A DNA stretch of 48,574 nucleotides from Cystobasidiomycetes sp. EMM_F5. Taxonomy: Eukaryota. Below, one piece after another: positions 24,645 through 43,772 of this stretch; positions within the stretch are counted from its first letter, which is position 1; every line of letters starts with the position of its first letter. Position numbers and translations under genes: made by a program. The notes beneath the pieces were generated by a model. That model was not told where the DNA came from. It worked only from the letters and a program-made list of their open reading frames with translations, and did not search any database. The DNA is taken from NCBI GenBank assembly GCA_051047955.1, contig JBPGPT010000005.1:682001-730574 (forward strand), written 5' to 3'.

Positions 24645-26756
24645 TCAAAACTTGAAGTTGTCCTTTTGCCTCTTTTGTTGGCGCGTCTGTTCTGCTTTTC
24701 TCCTCTTTGCACTCTCCTCTGCGACCACGTCTGAAAGGTCTTCTCGTCCACCTTGGCCTGCAGATTGTGATTCTGCATTTCTCTTTCTCGCATTCTCGTA
24801 CCTGCTCTTGATTTCCGCTTCCGACAGACCCTCCAACTCGCCAGCATCCAGACTGACGTCAACCCTCTGTTGCTGTTCTCTTCGCTTCTGTTGTCCTCGG
24901 TCGTCGACACCCAGTATTGGCAAATTGCTCGTCCCGACGTTCCGGGTATCGTATCCCCTCTCAGACCCGAGTGTACCGCGTACACTTGTGCGATGCTCTG
25001 GCAGGACCTGGTATAGCTCCTTTGGCGGTCCACCGGCATCACTATAATCGGTCGTCGTTTCTCTTCTTTTGCGGAGTTCCAAAAAGTCTGGCGTCTCAAG
25101 TCCACCCGGAACCGTAGAAGCGACACTTGCAAATCCAGAAGGCGTCTCCATTCCACCTGCAATAGATGAGGGCGTCTGCAACCCATCGGCATGTCGTTGT
25201 CTGGCACTGTCATCATCGTCTTCATCCTCTTCTTCCTCCTCCTCCTCCTCGCTGTCTTCTAGCTCTGGCTCCAACTCGCCAAACAGCGTCTTGTCAATCA
25301 CGTCCTGTCCTGCCGCGTCTGGTGCCAATTGGACGCCGAAGACATCACCATACAGAGGTCTGTTGAACTCGTCCACTGGCGGCCTGCCCCAACCACCGGG
25401 ATGAAAACCCCATTGAGCACCTTCCGGTATCGGTGCGTTCAAGCCCGGTATCCGCAACTGGGGGTAGGAGGGTGGGGGACCGAATCGCTGCATCGCAATC
25501 AGCCAGGGCGGAGGAGCAAGAGGAGGGATAGAGAGAGCCTCTTTGAGATCTTTTGATAATTCGCCCGGTCGTTTCTCCTTTAGGTGTGTCTCGTACTCTT
25601 TTCCTTCATAGTACATTTCCCCAAACTCCGACATGACGGGCTTTGTTTGAAACTTGAAGAACGCATCGTGTAGCTTTTGATAGTCGATATCGATCTTTCC
25701 CATCTTTGGCTGTACACGTTCTCGCGTCTTCTGCTTGAGCGATTGCCCTTCCTCCTTTTCCTTGATGGCGTCTCGCTGTGTGGCAATGCCTGTATCTGCA
25801 ATGAAGCCTAGGGTGGAGATCCGGAAGACCAGGTTAGTGTGTATAAGAAGGGATGAATTGTTCGGTAGGCCTACTTGGTAACTGAAATTGAGCCTTTTCG
25901 ATACCCTTCTTGCCGGCGAGGTAGTCTCGCTTGCTCTTCCAGTGAGGCGGTACTGCAATGGTATTCCTGTACGACTTGAGATGAACGAGGAGTCTCGGGT
26001 CGAGTGCAGACACATCGAACCAGTCTACTACGTCCGCCCTCTTGACGAGACGTTTGAGCTCTGCGACCGTCAGTCGATTCATCTTTTTCAGCTTGCGTTT
26101 CGATAGAGTTGCCGTCGCTGCTTGATCCTCTTCGTCGTCGGAAAGTGCTTCGTCGTCCGAGTAGTAAACGTGCCCCTTGCCTGTATCGCCGTCTGCGTTG
26201 TCGCCTGTTGCGGCATCGTCACCCTCGCCGTCGAGTGATCCCGCGAATCGAGCAAAGATGGCTCTGTACTCTGCTGGCATGTCTTGGCTGTCGAGTGACG
26301 AGACAGAGTCGTTTAATGCAGACGTAGATGGCTTTTTCTGAGTGAGAAGTATGCTTAGCCCTCGCTTGACGTTTGAAGGGCGTGCATCAAGCCACCCACC
26401 TCGTCCTCGTCTACCATATCATCGTACATGTTTCCCCCACTCAACTCGCTCGCAGTCATCCTCGCCGTCCGTTTCGGTCTGCTCGACTCGGCGGCATCTG
26501 TACGAACACTCTCCTGGCCATCCTCGGCCTTGACCTCGACGTCTCCTCCCAACGTGGATATTCCATTCGTCTCTGCGTCCTTTGTCGTCGCAGCCGGCTC
26601 TTCCGTACTCGTCGCCGCGGTTGCCTTTTGCTTTGCCTTTAGCTTTTTGAGCTGACCCTTGCTGAGCTTTGACGTGTTTACTGCGCTGCTCCCGTTCCCG
26701 TTGGCATGACTGGACGAGGCTGCTGCTGCTGCTGGCATTGTACTGACTCCGGCCAT
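24645..26756 (-). CDS. SF3B2: U2 snRNP splicing factor SF3B2 (SAP145/Cus1)
   Basis: RLTVAELKRLVKRADVVDWFDVSALDPRLLVHLKSYRN, QPKMGKIDIDYQKLHDAFFKFQ, PPPWLIAMQRFGPPPSYP and GAQWGFHPGGWGRPPVDE. C-terminus ends FKF*. Confidence 0.97.
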
Positions 26757-27342
26757 GCTTTGATTTGCTTGGATTGGGGCACTTCAGAGCCAACAAGTTA
26801 GAATGCATGTAGATGGGCTTTGAGGGGCTTTCGTGGTATCAATCCAATTCAAGTGCAACTTCAACCAGCACTACGCTCCCAGTCCCAGCATGCATAATGC
26901 TCTTAAATTCCATTGCCCGCAGTCTGCCCACCTCACTGCCAGCTTCTTCTCCGGCAACCTACACGACCGCCGTTACAACTGTTCGTAAAGCCGGCACAAG
27001 ATTCACAGACTGATGGTTCAGAATGCACTTGTTTGCATTCCGGATATCAGATACTCTGCGCCGTCCAGTATCTGCGAAGCTTCGCGTCCAACGAGGTTTC
27101 CGCCAAATGAAGTTGGCCTGGCCTGTCCCGTTGCGCTCAGAGACACAATGTTCCAGTGTCCATCGTATGAAATTTTCAGGTGACACGGAGCTGACGAGCG
27201 ACTGCTGATAAGCGATACAACGAGTGCTGCTTCGCAGTCTGGCTACCGCGTCAATATCTGCTGACAACCCTCTAAGTGCGACCGTCTGCAGCTAACCCTC
27301 TCCACACTCCCTCACAACCACACACTCCTTCACCAGCGTCTC

Positions 27343-29332
27343 ATGGCTTGGCTGAATTCATCAACGCGCCGGGGCAGCCAGTCGCGGGTATTCGTATCGG
27401 GTCCTACAATGAGCGATGGGACCACCCACGACGCGGAGAAGACGTCCTGGGCATCCTTGTCTCCCACCGTGTCCTTCAACGGCGTCAATCATCACCTCAA
27501 CGCCGCGCGCACAGGGATTCCAGCAATGCTCACCCAGTCGTCTAATCGGCAAAGGGTTCGTGTCGCAGCTATCGGAGGGACTGTCCTCATCTCCATTCTG
27601 CTCATCATGGCGTCCGGTAACTCTACTCCGTCCTCAGTCGCAACTCCCGAGCTGGTCGACAAGCTCGGTCAGTCGATGGCAGCGGGTAACGAGACGAGCG
27701 ATCTGTACAATGAGGACAACGTCGGCTACGTAGGATACGCCAAGTCGGTCGCAAGCAAGCTCAAAGACGAGATGAAGGAATACTACGACTATGCAGCGTC
27801 CGTAGCGGGCGATGCGGCGGAAAAGGCAAAGTCGTGGAGCAGCTGGAAAGCAAGCGACCAAGATGATGCTCTTGACAGTGATAGCGACAACGACGAAGAA
27901 GATTCAACTACAGGCACGGCTGAAGAGACTGATGCTGATGGTGAGGCAGTCAGTACGGCCACAAACTCTGGCTGGTGCTGGGGCAGCAGCAATCGCAAGC
28001 ACTCAAAAAGCAAAGGAGACACCAAGCACAATCAACTAAGCCAGTCTATCGCTTGTGCTGCCCCTATCAGACAGGAAATGAATGGTACTAAGATCACTCC
28101 GGCAAATTATAATGCCTTCCAGCGAGCATTTGCCGATTCTTGGAAGGGTGTGTGTAAGAACCTCGATCAGGATAAATTCACCATTCTCATGACGAGCAGT
28201 AACTCGAGAGCTAATATTGTTCGCAAGTGAGTGTGACTTGCTCGCATCGCATGGACATTTCCCAACCATATTTCTGACTTTGTATTCGGTCAACAGGAAT
28301 CTCAATACCTTCATCTCAGGCAAAGTCCCGTCGGTCGCAGAAGTCTATCTCCGCTGGATCGGTCCTCTTCCCACAGAACCGCTCTATGACTCTTCCATCC
28401 CCACTTCCGTTTCTGTCCGACTGTACGAGAATCAAAATGGCTCTTTGAACAATCGATGGGCACCTATTCCAGCCCTGAAGACGGCATACGTCTTCTCGCA
28501 CGACGACGATATGGAGATTGATCCTAGCGATTTTGAGTGGGCATGGAGTATTGCAAAGCGAAATACACCTGCATTCACGAGTTTTGTAGGAAGAAAGTTT
28601 GAATGGGCAGATCAAGCAAGAGGTGATAAAGTACAGGTAGACGAAAAGGGTAACAAGGTACTTCAACCGGTTTATAAGGTCGGAGTGGAGGGCCAAAATT
28701 ACAGTATGGGGTCAGTCAAGCCTCGACACTGAGAAATGGAACCCGTGCTAACATGAAAGTGCCATGCTTTTTGTTGCAGTACTTCTGCGAGCTGGATCCA
28801 TGCATCATTTATGGATATTTACGGACACGACTTCCTCAAACCAGTGCGAGATGTCGTGGAGGAGACGCAAAACTGCGAAGATGTAAGTAATCACCTGTCT
28901 TCATCCACCCAGCAACTCGTGCCTAATGGTTTCATTCACTAGATCGCAATGGCTTTCATCGTTCCTTACCTTACACGCGTTCCTCCGGTCATCATCGAGG
29001 GCCTGAAATCCGTTCTGGTGAGCAACTCCCCTTCGAAGGGACATCGGCAGAATCAGATAAGTATCATACTAATCATGTTCATCTATCCCGCAGCACTGGC
29101 AATTCCACAAGAATATGCAATCGGAAGGTGCAGCGCATTGGGTACGTTTATTCGGTCAATCGCCTAGGGCAGCCAAGTTTGACGTTGTCACGCAACTTTG
29201 CAGCGAAAGAGAGATCTCTGCGCAAAGGCCTTCTATAAGCATTTCGGTGAATTGCCGCCCGAGCGCGACTATACCGTCGTTCGCGGCCTTACCGCCGGGT
29301 CAAGGAAGATTCACTTTGAGCACGTCTATTGA
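27343..29332 (+). CDS. Glycosyltransferase family 64 (EXTL2/EPC1-like), type II membrane protein
   Basis: TM segment IGGTVLISILLIMA and acidic stem. Then KFTILM, SLNNRWAPIPALKTAYVFSHDDD (DDD motif), FVGR, YSM, VEETQNCED|IAMAFIV and RDLCAKAFYKHFGELP. Multi-exon, stop at 29330-29332. Confidence 0.88.
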
Positions 29333-33814: not shown

Positions 33815-33991
33815 CTTTGTTTTTTTGTGGCTATACACGTGTGTATATTTTGCAGAGCAGCCAGCTTGAATCGCCAGCCACACAGACGACGCAGCCTGAC
33901 ACAGCAGCAGCGTCTTCAGTCTTGAGATCTCACAGTTCCATCGCCAACATCCTCCATTTACTTGTCACCATCGCCGTTGCCAACTGCAACA

Positions 33992-36307
33992 ATGGCTGCG
34001 GCATCCAGTCGCGACCCGCTGGCCGACATCACCAACACCGTATCCGTCAGTGCACACCGCCAGCAGTCGAGCAAGCCAGCTGCAGTCTCCAACAACAACC
34101 TCCGCAAACCCAAGCTACTCCGCCAAACATCCCTCTTCGCATTTGCCGCTCGTCAGTCGTCCCCGGCGTGCTCACTATCCTCGGATGACCCTCTGCCAAA
34201 CGCATCGACGCCTGCAAAGTCGCATCCAGATGATGGATATCTGTCTGCATCTGTGCCCACATCATCCTCGTCGTCGCCCGACTCTATAGTCAACACTTCA
34301 AACAAACGGCAGAGACTCGATGACACTTTCCCTTCTTCGAATCATGCATCTCACAGCAGAAGTCACATCCAAGACGAGCGCGCAGAATCAGTGGACCCTG
34401 TGGACCCTGTGCGAGAGGAGCGACGAGCAAAGCTGCGCCTGCGCAATCAGCGCGGAATTCATGCGACCACCAAAAACTTTTCCGACCATCTTCGCCTGTC
34501 TGAGTATGCAACAACCTCACTGGGTCACCGTCTCGCTGAGGGAATGACAAGGCGAGGTCAAGCAAGCACTATAAGCAGAAATCATTGGGACCTTATCTCG
34601 CATGATACGGGTGACGTGCACCGGTGCGTGTCAAACAGACCAAACAGAGATTATGCGCCGCCCTTTGCGTGCGCGTTCAGTAATGGTGAGCGCATGTTAA
34701 AATAGCGGCACTTGAGTCAAATTTACTGATACCAGACGCCCTTTTCAACAGCATCCAAGAAAGGCGGCCGCAAAATCTTGGCTGTAGCAGATGAAGAAGG
34801 AACAGTCTCGTTGCTGGATGCTCACCAGACGGCGCAGTATGGAGCTCGTGAGCGACTCATAGGCTAGGATGGCATTTCTGTACTAATACTTGCCATTTGC
34901 ACCTCCAGCCACTATCAAGTCCTCCTTCCAGGCCCACAACAACGCCATCTTTGATTTACGGTGGAGCAACGACGATAAGCTCATTGTACGTTTCATGCTA
35001 TTAATCAACTTGTCACATGCTAATCGTCAAGCTGGCAGGCTACGGGATCGGGAGACCAGACTGCCATCCTGACGGATGTCGAGACGAAAAAGGTAACGGC
35101 TACATTTGCCGCTCACACATGCAGTATCAAGCAGATTCAGTTCGACCCATTCAATAACAGTGGGTGATACTTGCACATCTTTCGTGGAGCTGTTCGTACT
35201 GAACGATGATGCGCGCACAGACCTCCTCTCCACTGCTTCAAGAGACGGATCGATTGCTATCTGGGATCAACGGGTCAATGCTCAGAGTCAGTGGACACGT
35301 TCTTTCTAAGATGGTCGAGATGCTTAATCGTCTTTTGTGTCCACAGAAAATGGCAACCTAGCACCGGTCAACCACATTCGATTTGCACACGATAGCTTTG
35401 CAAAGACTCGTAAGCTCAAGGAGGAGACTCGTTCTTGCACGAGGAGTGTTACCTGCATCGTTTACCTTCAACATAAAGAAAATCTTTTGGCTTCGGGCGG
35501 GTCCTACGATGGGTATGTTGCTCGTGTCTGACTGCTTGATGGACATTCGCTCACCCTCTGTTCGCTTCATTAGCATCGTCAAAGTGTGGGACCTTCGAAA
35601 GGCCGTGTCGCGGCGAATCAATCCGCCATCCGTTGAGGAGAGCCTGGATTTTACTGGATCGTCAGCCGCTCCCTGCTCGACAGACTTGCCCTCGTCTTCT
35701 GCAATGTCTGCTTCATCATCATTCACGGGTCGCTCTCACGGCATCGCGTCTCTCATTCTATCCCCAGACGGAGCTCGACTTTATTCCCTCAACACAAATT
35801 CCAAGATTTACGTACACGACGCTCTCTTCCCCTCGCGCAACCTTGCAAAGCCAATGCAGGTCATGACCGGTCCTTCCCTCATGAGCAGCTCATTTTACGT
35901 TCGCCTCGCAATCTCAGCGGACGGCAACACGCTGGCAGCAGGAAGCTGTGGGAAAAAATACGGAGTGACGCTGTTTGACATTGCTACACACAAGAAGGGA
36001 ATGCAGCCATTTACTGAGCAGCAGGCTGGGGAATTTACCTTGTATGGTCATCAAGCTGAAGTCGGATGTCTCGATTGGGCAGATGATACAGTAAGCCTGC
36101 GTTTGATTTTGTCGTCCTTGATAACCGACATAGGCTGATATCCACCTCCCGTAGCTTGCAACCTGTAGCGATGACTTGCTCACACGATTTTGGCGGCCCA
36201 ATCAGCTGGTTCGGAGCAAAATAGCCACAGGCTATATGGTCGAGAAGGATATTTACTCGAAAGCAGAAAGACTTCGAAGACCTCCATTCCCTGGTCTATA
36301 TTTATAA
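33992..36307 (+). CDS. CDT2: CRL4 substrate receptor Cdt2/DTL (WD40)
   Basis: PPFACAFS, ILAVADEEGTVSLLD, FQAHNNAIFDLRWS..ATGSGDQTA, LLSTASRDGSIAIWDQR, RSVTCIVYL..LLASGGSYDG|IVKVWDLRK, SSFYVRLAISADG, GHQAEVGCLDW and LATCSDDLLTRFWRP. Confidence 0.9.
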
Positions 36308-36873
36308 ATATTGAGCAAGTCAAGGACCATTGCGCTCAACTGCAAGACAAAAACAATCGCTTCGCCACTCATTACAAATGCGCACAATGCCAAACCTTAC
36401 GGCATTACGATATGCAACCCATCCGTGCAACTTGCACGTTGCACGTTTCACAAACAGTCACACAGTCTCATTATATGAGTATACCGCGGCAGTTGACTGT
36501 TTTGCTTTGTGCATTGCATTGCGCTCTCCAGGATTTGTTACTAATCCTATTCATTGTACCGTTAATGCAAAACATGCTGCTTTGAAAGGCACTGCTTTCA
36601 AGCGATCATATATATTTGATAGGAGAGGCAGAAAGTTTGGCGAATGAGTCTGATACATAAGATTCTGGGCATTGGCGTCGTCATATATGCATAAAAGTGC
36701 CAGAGCTGCAAGCCTTATATCCAGCCTGTCGACATCTACAGATGTCAGTGTGCATATTCATGTCGTATCCTGCCCTACCAGATACAGTCAAAGCCCATTC
36801 CTACCGGATCTCATCAATGTGTGCACAAGCAAACTATACAGTTTGAGGTTTGGCAGGTCACGTGGCCCTGTCA

Positions 36874-36978: not shown

Positions 36979-39577
36979 ATGCTCACTGTACCACAGCAAG
37001 CAGCTGCTGCGCTGACGCATGTCAAAAGCCGGCTGCGCGAAACCCCGCAGGGCGTGTTGTTGGAAGACGATTTCTTTCTTGGAAACCTCAACTACAATTT
37101 TGTAACGCTCTATGGGATATACACCGGCATGTATCGGTAGCTACACCTTGCTACGACTGCTAATAAGCTCCTCACGTTTCCACAGAGCTGTACGGTTACC
37201 GCGAAGACTGCCTCGAGAGCCTAACCAGCCTCATTCAATCGCTAGCCACATCCTGGTCGGAAAGGCCAGAAGCGCTCCAGAATGTAGACAAGGAGAGACT
37301 GGGAAAGTCTGCGTGGTATACGTCGAATAAGATGGTAGGCCTAGTCGGACTCGCCCAAAGCAATCATTGAGAGCTGATCAAAGGTGCTGCGCTTTCACAG
37401 CTCGGTGGCATGTGGTACGCGACTACATCTATACGAGCGCAATGAACCAATGAATGACACCAGTACACACCCTAGTTACGTCGACTTATATGCTGGGAAT
37501 CTCACCAGATTAAGGGAGAAAATACCCTACTTGCAAGAAATTGGATTGACATATCTTCACTTGATGCCGCTCTTTAAAAGTCCTGAAAAGAATTCCGACG
37601 GAGGATATGCCGTCAGCTCGTATCGCGAAGTCGATAAGCAAGTCGGAACAATGGAGGAGCTCAAACAACTCGCTATCGAATTGAGAGCGTATGTTTTGTA
37701 AACTTTATCATTCTGGTGTGTACGCTGATGAAGTGCGGTACAGCGCTGGAATCTCTCTTGTCATAGACCTGGGTAAGTGAAAAGACGCCCTTTAAGATCG
37801 CCGTTTGACTTTCCCTCTTCCAACCAGTGTTCAACCATACATCAAATGAGCACGAATGGGCCAAGAAGGCGGCAGCTGGAGATCCAGAGTATTCCGGCTA
37901 CTATTGGATCTTCAATGACCGTTACATACCGAGCGAATTTGAAAAGACGACGCGTTCCATCTTCCCAGATGACCATCCAGGCAGTTTCATCCAGCTGCCG
38001 GATGGTCGTTGGATCTGGTCTACGTTCTATCACTTTCAATGGGATCTAAATTAGTATGTTGGCTTTCAGCGATCACAGTATACAGTCATATCTTGACCAA
38101 TGCGTATGTGCCAGCTCCAATCCAGCAGTCTTCAAGGCTATAGCGCTAGAAATGCTTTTCCTGGCAAATATAGGTGTAGAGATCTTCCGCATGGACGCTG
38201 TAGCTTTTATCTGGAAGCGCATGGGGACCACTTGCGAGAGCTTGCCAGAAGCGCACAAGCTATTGAGAGCATTTAATTCGATCTGTCGAATCGCTGCCCC
38301 GTCTGTCCTCTTCAAAGTAGGTGGTCCTTTTTGACAGTCCAAGATATGGCTCACTTGCAATCTTTGCAGTCCGAAGCTATCGTTCATCCAGGAGAAGTAG
38401 TCACATACATCGATTCGTACGAGTGTCAGCTTTCATACAATCCCCTTCAAATGGCATTAGGTTGGGTAAGCTTGACTTCTGATCGGCATGTTCGTAGCTG
38501 AAGACAGACGAATAACAGGAAGCGTTAGCAACCCGCAACGTCAGGATGCTCCAGCAAGCGCTTGAACGGTGGCACAACCTGGGCGATCCCGATCGCTGTC
38601 ACTGGGTCAATTATGTCCGCTCGCACGATGTGAGATGTTCGATAATTCCGGTGCATATTCCACAACCTGACGGCCCGCTTCTATCAAGGATATCGGATGG
38701 ACATTCTCGGATGAAGATGCCTTGGAGCTAGGTATAAAAGGCAATGAGCATCGCCGCTTCCTGAACGCTTTTTATGTCAATCGTCATCCGAACTCCTTTG
38801 CTCGGGGCGTGCCGTTCCAAGACAATCCAAGAACGGGAGACTGCAGAATCACTGGTACGGCGGCCAGTCTGGCGGGTATCGAAGCGGAAGGAGAATCAGC
38901 CATTGCTAGGCTGCTATTGCTGGAATCGATTGCCTTTTCAACAGGCGGTATTCCACTCCTTTACCTCGGAGATGAGGTAAGAGCCGCTATAGTGTGAGAC
39001 GCTCGTTAGCTGCTGAAATTATGCGATTGCATAGGTTGGTCAGCTGAACGACTACAATGTCCTCACGGACCCAGATAAAGGAGGTGACTCCAGATGGGTC
39101 AATCGGCCTGCGTGCCCTACTGCCTCCTACGATCAACGAAATGATCACAACACCATTGCCGGCAAGCTATTTGCTGGCATGATGAATCTCATCAAAATCA
39201 GAAAAGCTACGACGGAGTTAGGTAAGTCCAAGTCAGTTCCATGATAACATTGGTTCCTGCTGACTGTATTGTAGCCGGTGGTCGATTGGTCGGCTTCCAT
39301 ACAGGAAATCCTCACGTCCTTGGCTATCAGCGCATGGGCAGCCAGACGCGCCTTCTGTGCTTAGCAAATTTTCACGATACCTGGCAGGTGAGACACTGCG
39401 ACATGACTTCGATGCAATGAAACCTCGCATACTGACTGCATCTGACAGTGGGTCGGAAGAGACCGCTTCAGCTCAATTCCGGCGAATGTTGTGGACCTGA
39501 TTACGGGTTACGATATCGAGCTGCATAATTCGGGCATACAGCTGAGACCATACCAGTTCGTGTGGCTGCGGTTCTGA
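36979..39577 (+). CDS. Amylosucrase-like GH13 subfamily 4 enzyme, 13 exons, ~634 aa
   Basis: Exons 36979-37126, 37186-37334, 37401-37414, 37476-37688, 37744-37772, 37828-38053, 38115-38316, 38370-38465, 38519-38629, 38689-38976, 39035-39221, 39275-39387 and 39449-39577 sum to 1905 nt in frame. Motifs: [137 protein letters not shown] and LRPYQFVWL. Confidence 0.95.
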
Positions 39578-39697: not shown

Positions 39698-40499
39698 TTA
39701 CGATACCTCCAGACTTGCTCCAACGGCCTCGAAAGCCTTCTTCATCTTTTCTATATCGTCCTTTGGCACATTCTCTTTGAGCGTTTTTGGTACGCTCTCT
39801 ACGAATTTCTTTGCCTCGACCAGGTTCATAGTCGGCATGACATTCTTGACTTCCTTGATGACCTTGGCCTTTTGCGCAGCATCAATCTTGGTCAAGGTGA
39901 CAGTGAAAACAGTCTTCTCTTTCGGCTTTTCTGGCTCTGCTTCCGCTGCCGGTGCTGCCGCTGCTCCAGATCCTGCGCCCGGAGCCGCCGCAACAGGAGC
40001 TGCGACTGCAACATCTGCGATATTCAGGCGAGACTGTGGGTAATGTGATTGAGTGATGGCTCTTTGCCTACAGTGTATACAAAAGAGCACCTTCAATGTC
40101 GACACCAGCTCTGAGGCCTCCAGTAACGAAAGACCGGCAATCTGGTCAACGATCTGCTGTACTTTTGGTGATGTTGCAGAGGTGCTGGAAGAAGTAGATG
40201 AACTTGGCGCCGGTGGGGTTGCTGACGATGTTGATGGCGAGGCTGCTGGAGTTGCATAAGATCTCGCAAAATGGCAGCTGCAGGATCAGGAGCTTCAGCC
40301 ATGAGCCGTCCGTATATGAATGACTCGTATAATGCGCACGTTACACATGCAGAGGTCTGTGGCAGCTGCTGCCGCTGCTTCGATGCCGCTCGAAGGCTTC
40401 TTGAAATTGCTGATCTTGCTAAACTCTACGTCCAAGAAACGCAGCGAGGCGTCAGATTGGCGCTTCGTAGACTTCAATGAGTTGTCGTAACCGTACCAT
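39698..40499 (-). CDS. MRPL12: Mitochondrial large-subunit ribosomal protein bL12m (L7/L12)
   Basis: The first coding exon is just ATG, followed by a presequence. Then SPKVQQIVDQIAGLSLLEASELVSTLK|SRLNI and EKTVFTVTL..KAKVIKEVK..NLVEAKKFVESVPKTLKENV..KKAFEAVGA. Confidence 0.95.
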
Positions 40500-40727
40500 G
40501 ATGGTCAGCGCCAAAGCTGTTCGCGGGTGAATGTTGTTTCGAAGACAAGCTCTGGTCGAGCTTTCAGCAGTTCTAGCTCTGCTGCCGACCAATGCAACAA
40601 CAGTCTCTTGGATATCTTTGACTTGCACTGACTGATGATATAAAGAGCCGCATGCTATGCTGAGCTGCAATGCTGCACCCTGCGTCCCCGAGCAACCTGA
40701 TGAACTTATACACTCTTAACCACCATT

Positions 40728-43700
40728 ATGGAGGCGTCGGCATCCACAAGCCGCAGTCTAACAGCGAGCAACCTTGAGAGACATACTCGCTGTAATAAGC
40801 CTTCGGCGGAGGAGAATATCGCTCGCTACTTTCGTTATTTACAGCCCAGCTCGCCAATCGCCCCTGCACGCGATGTCAGCAAGCACGCTCGCGATAACGA
40901 GCGCGAAAGCCACAGTGCTGCAAACAAACGCGAAGCAACTGATGCAGACGGGGCGCGCCGGTCGTCAAATGACCGCCATCGCTCCAGCCGTGACGATACT
41001 GGCCATGGCAAAACGCCAGGCCGAAAGTCGTTGATCAAATTCATGTTGTCCAGGCGCGATTCTGATGCATACAAGCTCGCACAAGAGGATGATCTCGAAT
41101 CTGTCAGCCCAGTCCTCAAGCCTCGGCGTGGGACTTCCGGTTCACCGCAGCAGCACTCGTCTAAACGTAAGAGAAATGAAAAGGACCGTATATCCTTAGA
41201 AGACAGTGAAGATGAACGAAAGAAACGCGTGCGAAGCCGGCACTTCGATAAGAATGAAGAGAGACATAGGGACGCTGCAGCAATCGACAAAAAGGGTAAA
41301 GGCCGTTCGAGCAAGTCAGAGGATGAGCGAGCGCAGTGTAGGTTCGGGGCTTATTCACAGCAAATCGTTCATCTGAGTGGTCTGCACTGTCAGTGCTTGA
41401 GCAGCGGAAGCAGAAACGGAGAGCCAAAGCGATCATTGTCAGGGATCGTACGGGTACAAAGTCTCTGAGCAAGAATGCCGTCAAAGCACAACAGGAACAG
41501 GACCACCAGAAATCCAAACATAAAACTGACTATGGAAGTAGGAACAAAAGCAAGCACAAGCGTGGTAAAGACCCAGACACCACGTCCGTCACGAGCAAGG
41601 GGGCTGCCAGCGGCAAGTATGAGCTCGAGTGGGACCTGGTAGATATTGCCCGGCGGAAACGTCGAGAAACAGCGGTTTCTAAGAGTGTAAGAGCTGTCAA
41701 GGATGCAAATCTGGCAAAGCCCTCAACGAAAAGAAAGCACGACCAGAATCCGCTGTCCAGAGCCTCAAATATTGGTCCAGTCGAGCGTGTTACAGTCGGC
41801 ATAGATCATATATTCGTAGCTTCGGCACATAGCTGACGACGTTTTCCTGGCCAGTTGAAAGCAAAAGCTGGTATCTATAACCAGGGAGCATCATCGTCAA
41901 GACAGCCTGTATCTAGAGATCGAAAGTTCAATCGTCCGCGTATGTTATGAGCAGTCTTCGATCAGACTCTATGCTCAATCCTCGTTCACAGCGCCAGATC
42001 TGGCATTCAACGAGCTGCCGTTTCTGAATCAGCCTGTCGCTAGTGTTGCTTCCCCACGCCGCAAACGCAGAAAAGCAGCGATACCTGAGACATCTGACAG
42101 CGATTCTAGCTTGCCTAGTATAAGTCGGGCTAATGCGATAAAAGCTGCTAGCGTGGAACTGGTGTATCAGCCTCCCAGCCGAAAGGAGCGCAAGGCAGTT
42201 GAAGAACCCGAACGAAACCGCAACGTGAAGAATCGGTCATCGCCGAAGTTGGCCACCCAAACTAAAAGGGTCGATACATCTTTCAGTGGTTCCAGCGATC
42301 TTTCCTCGTGTAATGGTGATGTCAAAATGCCAGAGAAGAGCAAAGGTAAGCCTGAGGGCAGAAGAAGCGAGACTTCAAATCCAGCTCTTCCGTCAGTGGA
42401 TAAGCATCAGACCGCGAAAGTCAGTGATCAAGCCAAGCCGGAGGTCGAATTGCGAGGAACGCGACAGCCATCGAGTGCCATGCGCGCAGGTACATCGCCC
42501 CCCTCTGAAGCACAAGTTTCCTCCCTCACCGGTCTTTCTGCGGCATCTCTGGCCCGAAGACGGGAGCGACGACACATGAACATAGAAATGCTGTCACAAC
42601 AGGCAGCAGTCCGCTCGACTGGCGCTCCAAGTTGTGCGGCCACGTCGGCGTTGCAGACTGTCCCAGAAAGTCCCGCAAAAGAGACTTCTCACATCCTCTC
42701 CAGCATCCGCCTTGATCACGGTCCTTCCGCTGTTGTTGGAAAGGCCTATCCGGCCGTGCGCGTCCCTCGCAGAAAGGCCAGCTTGATAGCGGGAGGGCGT
42801 ACCGATCTACCTCCACGCTCGCGATCCGGGTCGGCGTATGGACCGAGTCGCTTACAAGTGGAGACTGGCGTGAATGATTGGCTGTTCTCGCCACCTGAAG
42901 CTTTCGAGAATATACCGTATGACGACGATGCGCATGTGGAGCCAGCAGACTGCCCACCCCTGCAATTCACATTCGGCAACGATGTACCGTCATACTTAGA
43001 GCCAGCGCCGGCAGTCGACCATCAATTAGACGAGTTCGGGTTCGATGAGGACGATCTACCAGACTGCGACCGCAGCAACTCTGACCTGGACGACTACGAC
43101 GAAAATACATACAGTCTACACATGCGCACATGCATGCCACATCAAAATGTCACGGACTTCCATGCGCAGGCTGTGCCCTTGGCCACCCACCAGCATCCTG
43201 CCTTGCCGATGTCGAACGGCCCAGGGGAGCGGTCCGTGGACGTGTCTGAGGACATGATCAATTGGGACTTTGTCACTCATGATACAGTCGATTCAGCGAT
43301 CTTGGAAGACGCAAATGGGCACTCGGTCTTGCCAGGGCTCTCAGCTTATCAAGCGCAAGTCATGACGAGCCGTGACATGGCATCAGATCCTCAGACTTTC
43401 GTAGACACCGCGGCTGTGACCAATCGGGACTTCGAACTTCAGATCAAGCAATCAGCGTGGCCTTTCCGTCAGCATGGCCTGCCTTTCGATCATCAATCGC
43501 TTATTGACCACCAAAACGGCAGTGGCAATGCGTATCCAAGCGGCGAACATTATCATAACAACACGAGATCTGCTGAACATCAATATGGTACGACCGTCAT
43601 TGCGACCTTGCCGTGCGCAAGAGCATGTCCATCACACGAAGTCAATACATTCTCGGGCTCGCATGCCAATTTGTATTCGGCAGACGACCTGCTGCAAGCA

Positions 43701-43772
43701 TACGAGTCCGCGCCATACAACGGAAGGCAGAACAATCGCTACAACGGCTTCTGGAAACGGTCCGGTGCCTGA
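40728..43772 (+). CDS. Large hypothetical, mostly disordered protein (basic/Ser-rich N-half, acidic C-half)
   Basis: Consecutive same-strand ORFs 40728-41468, 41393-41836 and 42111-43772 are separated by short intron-like gaps. Several K/R clusters resemble NLSs. No domain recognised. Confidence 0.6.

Follow-up and report, generated by a model that had tools for sequence, protein, structure and literature searches.

An intron-rich amylosucrase-group gene in a basidiomycete genome, with a probable origin in a transfer from bacteria to fungi

We describe a gene of glycoside hydrolase family 13 (GH13), from its amylosucrase / sucrose-hydrolase group, on contig JBPGPT010000005.1 of Cystobasidiomycetes sp. 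EMM_F5 (assembly GCA_051047955.1). The whole stretch of DNA that we analysed, which we call the window, is 48,574 nucleotides (nt) long (contig positions 682,001 to 730,574), and the gene lies on its forward strand at window positions 36979-39577. Our reading, to which we assign a probability of roughly 80%, is that the gene is intact, has adapted to its host, and encodes a cytosolic enzyme; that it descends from one transfer from a bacterium to a fungus; and that it then took on the base composition of its host and gained 12 introns. On this reading, the transfer founded a small clade of fungal genes whose members now occur here and there in two phyla and at least six classes. The window gene adds a member with unusually many introns to a known enzyme family.

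The 13 exons of the gene join into a coding sequence of 1905 nt: 634 codons, then a TGA stop codon, and no internal stops. This agrees with the original prediction, in which a model had read the region as 13 exons that splice in frame to a protein of about 634 amino acids. We set the exon boundaries by hand after comparing three homologs (found via exon 10) to the region with tblastn. Exon 1 (36979-37126) starts at the first in-frame ATG (36979) past a stop codon at 36844-36846 and encodes the N-terminal helical domain. Exon 2 (37186-37334), the 29-nt exon 5 (37744-37772), and exon 12 (39275-39387), which encodes part of the C-terminal domain, were placed by tblastn and the spliced frame. Exon 3 (37401-37414) is a micro-exon of 14 nt that encodes LGGM and two nt of a cysteine codon; it is required for colinearity with the conserved ...MLGGVCYVD... 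of the homologs. The catalytic barrel begins in exon 4 (37476-37688), which matches PF00128 (E = 3.9e-12), and exon 13 (39449-39577) ends in the TGA at 39575-39577. (Exons 6 to 11 are described with the residues that they encode.) A model with the fewest introns, found as a shortest path, was also free of stops and had 11 introns; we rejected it because, according to tblastn, its first two introns crossed a chance-open frame without homology.

The 12 introns that had been predicted are 53-66 nt long, or one per 159 nt of coding sequence, and all of them have an AG acceptor. Eleven are GT-AG introns, and intron 1 alone (37127-37185; 59 nt, phase 1) has a putative GC donor (GCATGT...CAG). Four in-frame, stop-free junctions are possible for intron 1. 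We read it as GC-AG because the protein must stay colinear with its homologs, and only this junction keeps the colinearity. The sole GT-AG option (37102-37187) is in frame but loses 9 conserved residues, so we retain it only as a fallback. In 11 of the 12 introns, a TRAY motif, which resembles a branch site, lies 5-40 nt ahead of the acceptor, versus 21.5% of 2000 control windows from exons, and the longer CTRAY motif is found in 7 of the 12 introns versus 4.6% of the control windows. Intron 9 (38630-38688; 59 nt, phase 0) falls between Asp396 and Asp397 and so splits the catalytic motif SHD|D, just as had been proposed.

By its sequence, the predicted protein belongs to the amylosucrase / sucrose-hydrolase group, which we take to be subfamily GH13_4 of CAZy. 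Exon 10 alone (38689-38976) matches the amylosucrase of Neisseria polysaccharea (NpAS; PDB 1g5a, chain positions 392-489) with E = 1.3e-38 and 134.7 bits. All 18 of the solved structures that exon 10 matched are amylosucrases or sucrose hydrolases, with the Xanthomonas sucrose hydrolase at 41.6 bits. The nearest full-length homolog, from Coniosporium apollinis (P0149), shares 68.9% identity with the window protein across 634 alignment columns, a similarity well above the level of chance; the window protein aligns to it over residues 2-634, with just 4 gap positions. P0149 in turn aligns to 1g5a (33-632 on 30-626; 806.8 bits) without gaps over 30-574 and then with a single 3-residue gap. Its 18 best PDB sequences are again all amylosucrases or sucrose hydrolases, at 418-807 bits (493-530 bits for the other amylosucrases); the Xanthomonas sucrose hydrolases reach 417-418 bits; and the next group of GH13, trehalose synthase, scores 183 bits. 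This supports the family assignment in the original prediction. Full-length P0149 matches the GH13 domain (PF00128) with E = 3.3e-43. Four other exons of the window gene, each scanned alone, had no match in Pfam, probably because they are short pieces.

The window protein (634 amino acids) and NpAS (PDB 1G5A, EC 2.4.1.4; 628 amino acids) are thus alike from end to end: P0149 is colinear with NpAS and the window protein is colinear with P0149, which gives the five-domain layout N, A, B, B', and C. The first 30 residues of NpAS lie outside the HMMER alignment, so a similarity at the extreme N-terminus that had been noted earlier could not be confirmed. The window gene differs from that of NpAS in that its host is a eukaryote and in having 12 introns, and the activity of its product is predicted. 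The sucrose hydrolases of Xanthomonas (3CZE/3CZK and 2WPG) share the fold and the catalytic machinery and are among the 18 top PDB matches, but the similarity is far weaker (418 versus 807 bits for P0149, and 41.6 versus 134.7 bits for exon 10). Two sequences from among the representatives described below (P0354 and P0359) were tried as sucrose hydrolases of the Xanthomonas type; both were closer to amylosucrases.

We used P0149 as a bridge between the window protein and 1g5a and compared 20 residues, whose roles in catalysis, in closing the pocket, or in acceptor binding are those assigned to them in NpAS. At all 20 positions the window protein has the identical residue (NpAS D144, Y147, H187, R226, I228, F229, F250, R284, D286, A289, F290, E328, I330, V331, H392, D393, D394, R415, R446, and R509). 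The catalytic triad of GH13 and its partners are present: the nucleophile Asp287 (38194-38196) and Arg285 are in the FRMDAV motif of exon 7 (38115-38316), which also encodes Ala290 and Phe291; the acid/base Glu329 (38373-38375) is in the SEAIV motif of exon 8 (38370-38465), along with Ile331 and Val332; the transition-state stabiliser Asp396 (38627-38629) and His395 are in SHD at the 3' end of exon 9 (38519-38629); and His188 is in the FNH motif of exon 6 (37828-38053), along with Arg227 (37953-37955; NpAS Arg226), Ile229, Phe230, and Phe251. The pair that closes the pocket (Asp144-Arg509 in NpAS) corresponds to Asp145 (37597-37599), which is in the SDGGY motif of exon 4 with Tyr148, and Arg512 (39092-39094), which is in the DSRW motif of exon 11 (39035-39221). 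Exon 10, which encodes the region of the B' domain, contributes Asp397 (38689-38691), Arg418 (38752-38754; NpAS Arg415), and Arg449 (38845-38847; NpAS Arg446). The acceptor-site residues (NpAS Asp394, Arg446, Arg415, Arg226, Ile228, Phe229, Ala289, Phe290, Ile330, and Val331) are all identical in the window protein. The catalytic and acceptor-site residues that had been picked out beforehand, including the three arginines (Arg227, Arg418, and Arg449), are therefore all in place.

The first 15 residues of the protein are not hydrophobic (mean Kyte-Doolittle hydropathy of 0.79). Residue 1 aligns with residue 1 of several homologs, including one from a metagenome-assembled genome (MAG) that is named as bacterial (Microbacteriaceae; P0158), so the protein has no N-terminal extension. 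For both reasons we expect the protein to be cytosolic.

Where do the relatives of this protein occur? When we searched with the protein of exon 10, limiting the search to longer proteins, proteins of Arthrobacter were interspersed with a few fungal records among the best 120 of 1965 matches, and none of these 120 was an ortholog above 80% identity. A scan of metagenome contigs with exon 10 (80 loci kept of 233 confirmed) gave a best match of 77% and no close relative. The 16 full-length matches of highest similarity (mean column identity of 78%) were then combined into a profile, with which we searched a collection of 5.8 billion sequences, from which 120 rows were listed. The top 50 clusters (at 90% identity) form a distinct, fungal-type group and are 69-100% identical to the first query sequence; 18 are named for fungi, one for a plant, and none for a bacterium. 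Exophiala accounts for five, Fonsecaea for two, and Cladophialophora for two, and there is one cluster each from Capronia, Rhinocladiella, Knufia, Lithohypha, Endocarpon, Schaereria, Coniosporium, Elasticomyces, Halenospora, and Meredithblackwellia. We looked up the lineages of nine of the carrier taxa in the taxonomy. The fungal-type clusters are mostly from Chaetothyriales, and those from Endocarpon, Schaereria, Coniosporium, Halenospora, and Meredithblackwellia come in addition. Other fungal lineages did not appear among the 120 rows listed. (We take the fungi that share the gene to be mainly black yeasts, rock fungi, and lichen fungi.) Below the top 50, the list turns bacterial, with identities of 66% or less. 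The gene is not a one-off: the fungal group comprises about 50 clusters, and four of them already bear the name "amylosucrase" by automatic annotation at NCBI. Public examples are "Amylosucrase [Endocarpon pusillum Z07020]" and the records from Exophiala viscosa, Halenospora varia, and Meredithblackwellia eburnea.

Identities of the window protein are 64-69% with the fungal group, as compared to 61-64%, over about 600-634 residues, with bacterial proteins from Arthrobacter and Microbacteriaceae. The public fungal homologs have the same length as the window protein, are colinear with it over their full length (N-terminus included), and fall in a common clade with it. The window copy is the most divergent member that we saw, with a terminal branch of 0.64, and its host is of another class (Cystobasidiomycetes-like). 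Actinobacterial amylosucrases (Cellulomonas carbonis and Arthrobacter) are 61-64% identical to the window protein, but the bacterial genes are intronless and their GC content at third codon positions (GC3) is 0.85-0.98, versus 0.556 for the window gene. One bacterial row of our trees, a record named as the amylosucrase of Cellulomonas carbonis (P0070), is 61.7% identical to the window protein. The tree of a recent review includes amylosucrase sequences from Cellulomonas and Arthrobacter, among others, and some of the sequences in it are characterised (PMC11046441).

For phylogenetic analysis we combined the spliced window protein, the named fungal records, and bacterial open reading frames (ORFs) from 80 loci of GTDB species, reduced to 31 with less than 78% identity. 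To these we added full-length representatives from an exhaustive HMMER search, which gave 905 representatives (at 50% identity) with E ≤ 1e-30; 12 of these representatives are in the quick tree. NpAS itself lies outside the set of rows. In the quick tree (83 rows), the window protein falls into a clade of 25 rows together with 17 records named for fungi, the one named for a plant, and 6 unnamed sequences, and the support from the Shimodaira-Hasegawa-like approximate likelihood-ratio test (SH-aLRT) is 100. Our careful maximum-likelihood tree has 40 rows (LG+C20+F+G4, with ultrafast bootstrap and SH-aLRT); 8 representatives on long branches and near-duplicates were left out. There, 10 fungus-named rows, the window protein, another protein (P0153), and a metagenome locus (L090) form one clade, with support of 100/100. 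A small bacterial group is sister to this clade, at 94/96 (85 in the quick tree), and comprises Amnibacterium, a Microbacteriaceae MAG, an Acidobacteria MAG, and two unnamed sequences (P0155 and P0156). The fungal clade and its sister are enclosed by successive bacterial rows at 98/99, 100/99, and 100/100.

Because the fungal clade is nested inside bacterial sequences, these trees support a single founding transfer from bacteria to fungi. The original prediction had set patchy fungal homologs, nested as one clade among bacterial sequences, as the test of horizontal transfer, and that is the pattern that we found: the nested clade has strong support, its distribution among fungi is patchy, and the window gene is linked to native genes. 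Since the sister group also holds the Acidobacteria MAG and unnamed sequences, the donor can be placed no closer than near the Amnibacterium-type group.

The linkage is apparent from the neighbours. We compared 15 long ORFs across the 48.6-kb window to Pfam and found matches to WD40, L7/L12, TRAPPC13, Hid1/Dymeclin, DUF382 with PSP (the SF3B2/CUS1 type), and PA with RING, all of which are eukaryotic housekeeping types. The upstream neighbour (35362-36138, + strand) is an exon of a WD40-repeat protein, eukaryotic according to Pfam. The downstream neighbour (39698-40285, - strand) is convergent and encodes an L7/L12-type ribosomal protein (PF00542, E = 2.6e-22; PF16320, E = 4.5e-07), presumably the mitochondrial MRPL12. 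The two had been named CDT2 and MRPL12; an L7/L12-type protein does lie downstream, but upstream there is only the WD40-repeat assignment, and the identity as CDT2 could not be confirmed. The coding sequence of the window gene has a GC content of 0.504 and a GC3 of 0.556, as compared to a GC3 of 0.49-0.55 for five neighbouring ORFs and of 0.85-0.98 for five homologs from high-GC Actinobacteria and Acidobacteria. Because of the eukaryotic flanking genes and the host-like GC content, we consider the gene to be chromosomal in the fungus and contamination to be excluded on these sequence grounds, as had been claimed earlier.

The host itself can be placed with one marker, the SF3B2-like ORF (24645-26024, - strand). 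Besides its own entry (100%), this ORF matches unnamed proteins at 72-81% identity and a protein from a Cyphobasidiales MAG at 73% (P0216), followed by Rhodotorula (65-66%), Mixia (63%), and many Agaricomycetes (61-66%). This marker points to a basidiomycete of the Pucciniomycotina, with a Cyphobasidiales genome as its closest named relative, and probably of the class Cystobasidiomycetes. We found no support for the earlier suggestion of a plant-associated fungus.

What would the enzyme do? Because the catalytic machinery is conserved, we predict the retaining double-displacement mechanism of amylosucrase. Sucrose would bind in a pocket that is shut by the Asp145-Arg512 pair. Asp287 would attack the sucrose, so that fructose is released and a covalent glucosyl-enzyme is formed; Glu329 would serve as the acid/base, and the transition state would be stabilised by Asp396. 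Next, the glucosyl group would be moved to the non-reducing end of an alpha-1,4-glucan, guided by Asp397, Arg449, Arg418, and Arg227; the acceptor would most plausibly be cytosolic glycogen or maltooligosaccharides. Side acceptors could be water, which would give hydrolysis, or fructose, which would give turanose and trehalulose. On balance, imported sucrose would be stored as glucan without the use of uridine diphosphate glucose (UDP-glucose), and the fructose would enter glycolysis. For bacteria, a review gives amylosucrase a role in glycogen metabolism that includes the saving of ATP (PMC11046441). For the window gene, we infer its expression, the specificity for sucrose, the polymerisation, the cytosolic location, and the physiological role.

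Several points weigh against our reading, or against parts of it. None of the sequencing runs listed was an RNA run that carries the locus (two runs contained small shares, 0.07 and 0.06), and the gene model has a non-canonical GC donor in intron 1 and a 14-nt micro-exon that were both inferred from homology. NCBIfam has no amylosucrase model, and its 27 matches were weak, with none at the cut-off. The placement of the host rests on a single marker. The root of the tree rests on four distant representatives, and support for the Amnibacterium-type group as the sister is no more than moderate (94/96 and 85). The phrase "one transfer" covers an early acquisition followed by many losses as well as a later spread from fungus to fungus, and these two histories are equally open. 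Finally, conserved residues cannot distinguish a polymerase from an enzyme that behaves in vivo as a hydrolase or isomerase.

Both histories remain because the fungal clade starts in a polytomy, from which the window protein, Halenospora, Meredithblackwellia, P0153, and the remaining ascomycetes all emerge. In approximately unbiased (AU) tests, a clade of the window protein with Meredithblackwellia was not rejected (p = 0.138), nor was a clade of the ten ascomycete rows (p = 0.258). It is possible, though we rather doubt it, that one very old transfer put the gene into the common ancestor of Ascomycota and Basidiomycota, and that it was then inherited vertically and mostly lost. That neither constraint is rejected fits this history, but with a polytomy at the base of the clade the tests are weak. 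Among the ascomycetes, the order of Coniosporium, Schaereria, Endocarpon, and Chaetothyriales does roughly track taxonomy, and 12 introns along with a fully adapted base composition would suit a long residence. However, very many independent losses would be needed to leave about 50 clusters among the fungal proteins of the 5.8-billion-sequence collection. The window protein is also nearly as far from the fungal copies as from the bacterial ones, and, as a weak indication, the Cyphobasidiales MAG is present in the collection while its name is absent from the 120 amylosucrase rows listed.

The introns also bear on the history of the gene within fungi. Two loci on metagenome contigs, L083 (the whole locus, 641 codons) and L090 (positions 987-2942, 651 codons), are uninterrupted ORFs that are about 80% identical to the Endocarpon protein. 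Both have a fungal-like GC content of 0.51 and are of the Chaetothyriales/Verrucariales type, and L090 is nested inside the Chaetothyriales in the careful tree (its flanks had no Pfam matches). At least some copies of the ascomycete type thus appear to be intronless, versus 12 introns in the window copy. At least one native neighbour has far fewer introns: the SF3B2-like gene (24648-26340, - strand) has a single intron (25806-25872) over 526 aligned residues, and the TRAPPC13-, Hid1-, and SF3B2-like neighbours have uninterrupted ORFs of 1.4-1.9 kb. If anything, the acquired gene seems to be more intron-rich than its surroundings. An acquired gene that outnumbers its native neighbours in introns is the opposite of the usual pattern. 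We also considered whether the introns are introners, that is, copies of one repeated element, and rejected this: their mean local alignment score was 11.4, versus 11.1 after shuffling, and the maximum was 17 versus 25.

The main rival to our reading accepts the gene and its origin but not the synthesis of glucan. Here the enzyme would mainly split sucrose, as a hydrolase or isomerase that substitutes for invertase, and glucan synthesis would be negligible. We think that this is unlikely. The GH13 group does include pure sucrose hydrolases (3cze/3czk are among the matches), and to our knowledge, every characterised amylosucrase can hydrolyse and isomerise sucrose as well. With UDP-glucose as their existing source of glycogen, fungi would not need a second synthetic route, and in a study of fungal sucrose use, the known routes are hydrolytic (PMC11930586). 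Against this, P0149 scores about twice as high on true amylosucrases as on sucrose hydrolases, every acceptor-site residue that we checked is retained, including Arg227, Arg418, Arg449, and Asp397, and the record named as the Cellulomonas carbonis amylosucrase is among the bacterial rows of the tree.

It is very improbable that the transfer left behind just a silent or decaying relic, in effect a pseudogene. The lack of an RNA run with the locus among those listed would fit this view, and so would a full-length frame that requires a non-canonical donor and a 14-nt micro-exon. But the 13 exons give 634 codons free of stops, none of the 20 functional residues is altered, and the alignment to the nearest fungal homolog has just 4 gap positions, which is not what a relic would have, and the 78% mean column identity of the 16 profile sequences implies strong conservation within the fungal group. 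Weakest of all is the idea of bacterial contamination, a chimeric assembly, or a transfer from fungi to bacteria: the closest non-fungal relatives are soil Actinomycetota, which are frequent contaminants, and several public records of the family look mislabelled, but we give this almost no credence given the 12 spliceosomal introns, the host-like GC3, and the eukaryotic genes on both sides within 48.6 kb, and because the fungal clade is one well-supported twig in a broad bacterial radiation.

We return to our preferred reading, an active gene of bacterial origin that has adapted to its fungal host. Fungi usually use sucrose through GH32 invertases, or through GH13 alpha-glucosidases inside the cell together with maltose/sucrose transporters. 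These enzymes share their substrate with amylosucrase, but they hydrolyse it, whereas the amylosucrase family transfers the glucosyl group to a glucan, belongs to another lineage of GH13, and has bacterial ancestry. An intracellular amylosucrase route would likewise need an importer of disaccharides, which is described for the alpha-glucosidase route in the same study (PMC11930586).

We did not find a paper on a fungal or eukaryotic amylosucrase in the full-text literature, a scope that leaves subscription journals and supplements aside. One basidiomycete genome paper contains the word amylosucrase, but it merely cites the paper on the NpAS structure. A 2024 review describes the distribution of amylosucrase "across prokaryotes" (PMC11046441). 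The main text of a 2026 review has no occurrence of "eukaryot", and "fung" and "yeast" occur in its reference list only (PMC13579501). The accessible sections of the 2025 study of sucrose and maltose use in fungi cover GH13 alpha-glucosidases, GH31, GH15, and GH32 only (PMC11930586). The fungal clade of amylosucrases appears to be present in the databases under automatic names and to be undescribed in print.

If active, the enzymes of this conserved clade would give fungi a third way to use sucrose, beside invertases and alpha-glucosidases, and would be a eukaryotic case of glucan synthesis without UDP-glucose. The clade would also offer amylosucrases that are naturally adapted to eukaryotes for use in biotechnology (synthesis of glucans and glycosides). 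With a gene that appears to be intronless in some fungi and has 12 introns here, it could be a clean case for how a transferred gene turns native. The weight of the finding is limited in that transfers of carbohydrate enzymes into fungi are common, the fungal homologs are already public under automatic names, and the activity is predicted. More speculatively, the scattered stress-tolerant fungi of this clade (black yeasts, rock-inhabiting and lichen-forming fungi, and this Cyphobasidiales-like yeast) might share a bacterial-derived pathway from sucrose to storage glucan that bypasses nucleotide sugars, and might use it to bank the sucrose that leaks from phototrophs living with them or next to them in lichens and subaerial biofilms, with an unusual burst of intron gain in this basidiomycete lineage. 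We offer this as a tentative idea that is more likely wrong than right.

Within the window, four ORFs on the + strand had no Pfam match at E ≤ 0.001: 41859-43772 (637 codons), 40704-41468 (254 codons), 27265-28230 (321 codons), and 33926-34705 (259 codons).

Some of the public records in our trees have positions that do not fit their names. A record named for the plant Mikania micrantha (P0076, on a contig of 96 Mb) lies within the Chaetothyriales part of the fungal clade, beside Rhinocladiella and Exophiala oligosperma; it is either a fungal sequence in a plant assembly or a further transfer. The protein from Elasticomyces elasticus (P0140; Dothideomycetes) is nearly identical to that of Exophiala viscosa (branches of 0.048 and 0.047, SH-aLRT of 100) even though the two are of different classes, so this may be a mislabelled or mixed assembly. 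Among the bacteria, a record named Vibrio cholerae strain 35D (L068/P0002) forms a tight group with Arthrobacter agilis and A. burdickii, with branches of about 0.1, as though the assembly contained DNA of Arthrobacter or the gene had been transferred very recently. Similarly, an amylosucrase homolog named for Planococcus sp., of the Bacillota (L035), is nested in sequences from Microbacterium, due either to contamination or to a transfer between bacterial phyla.

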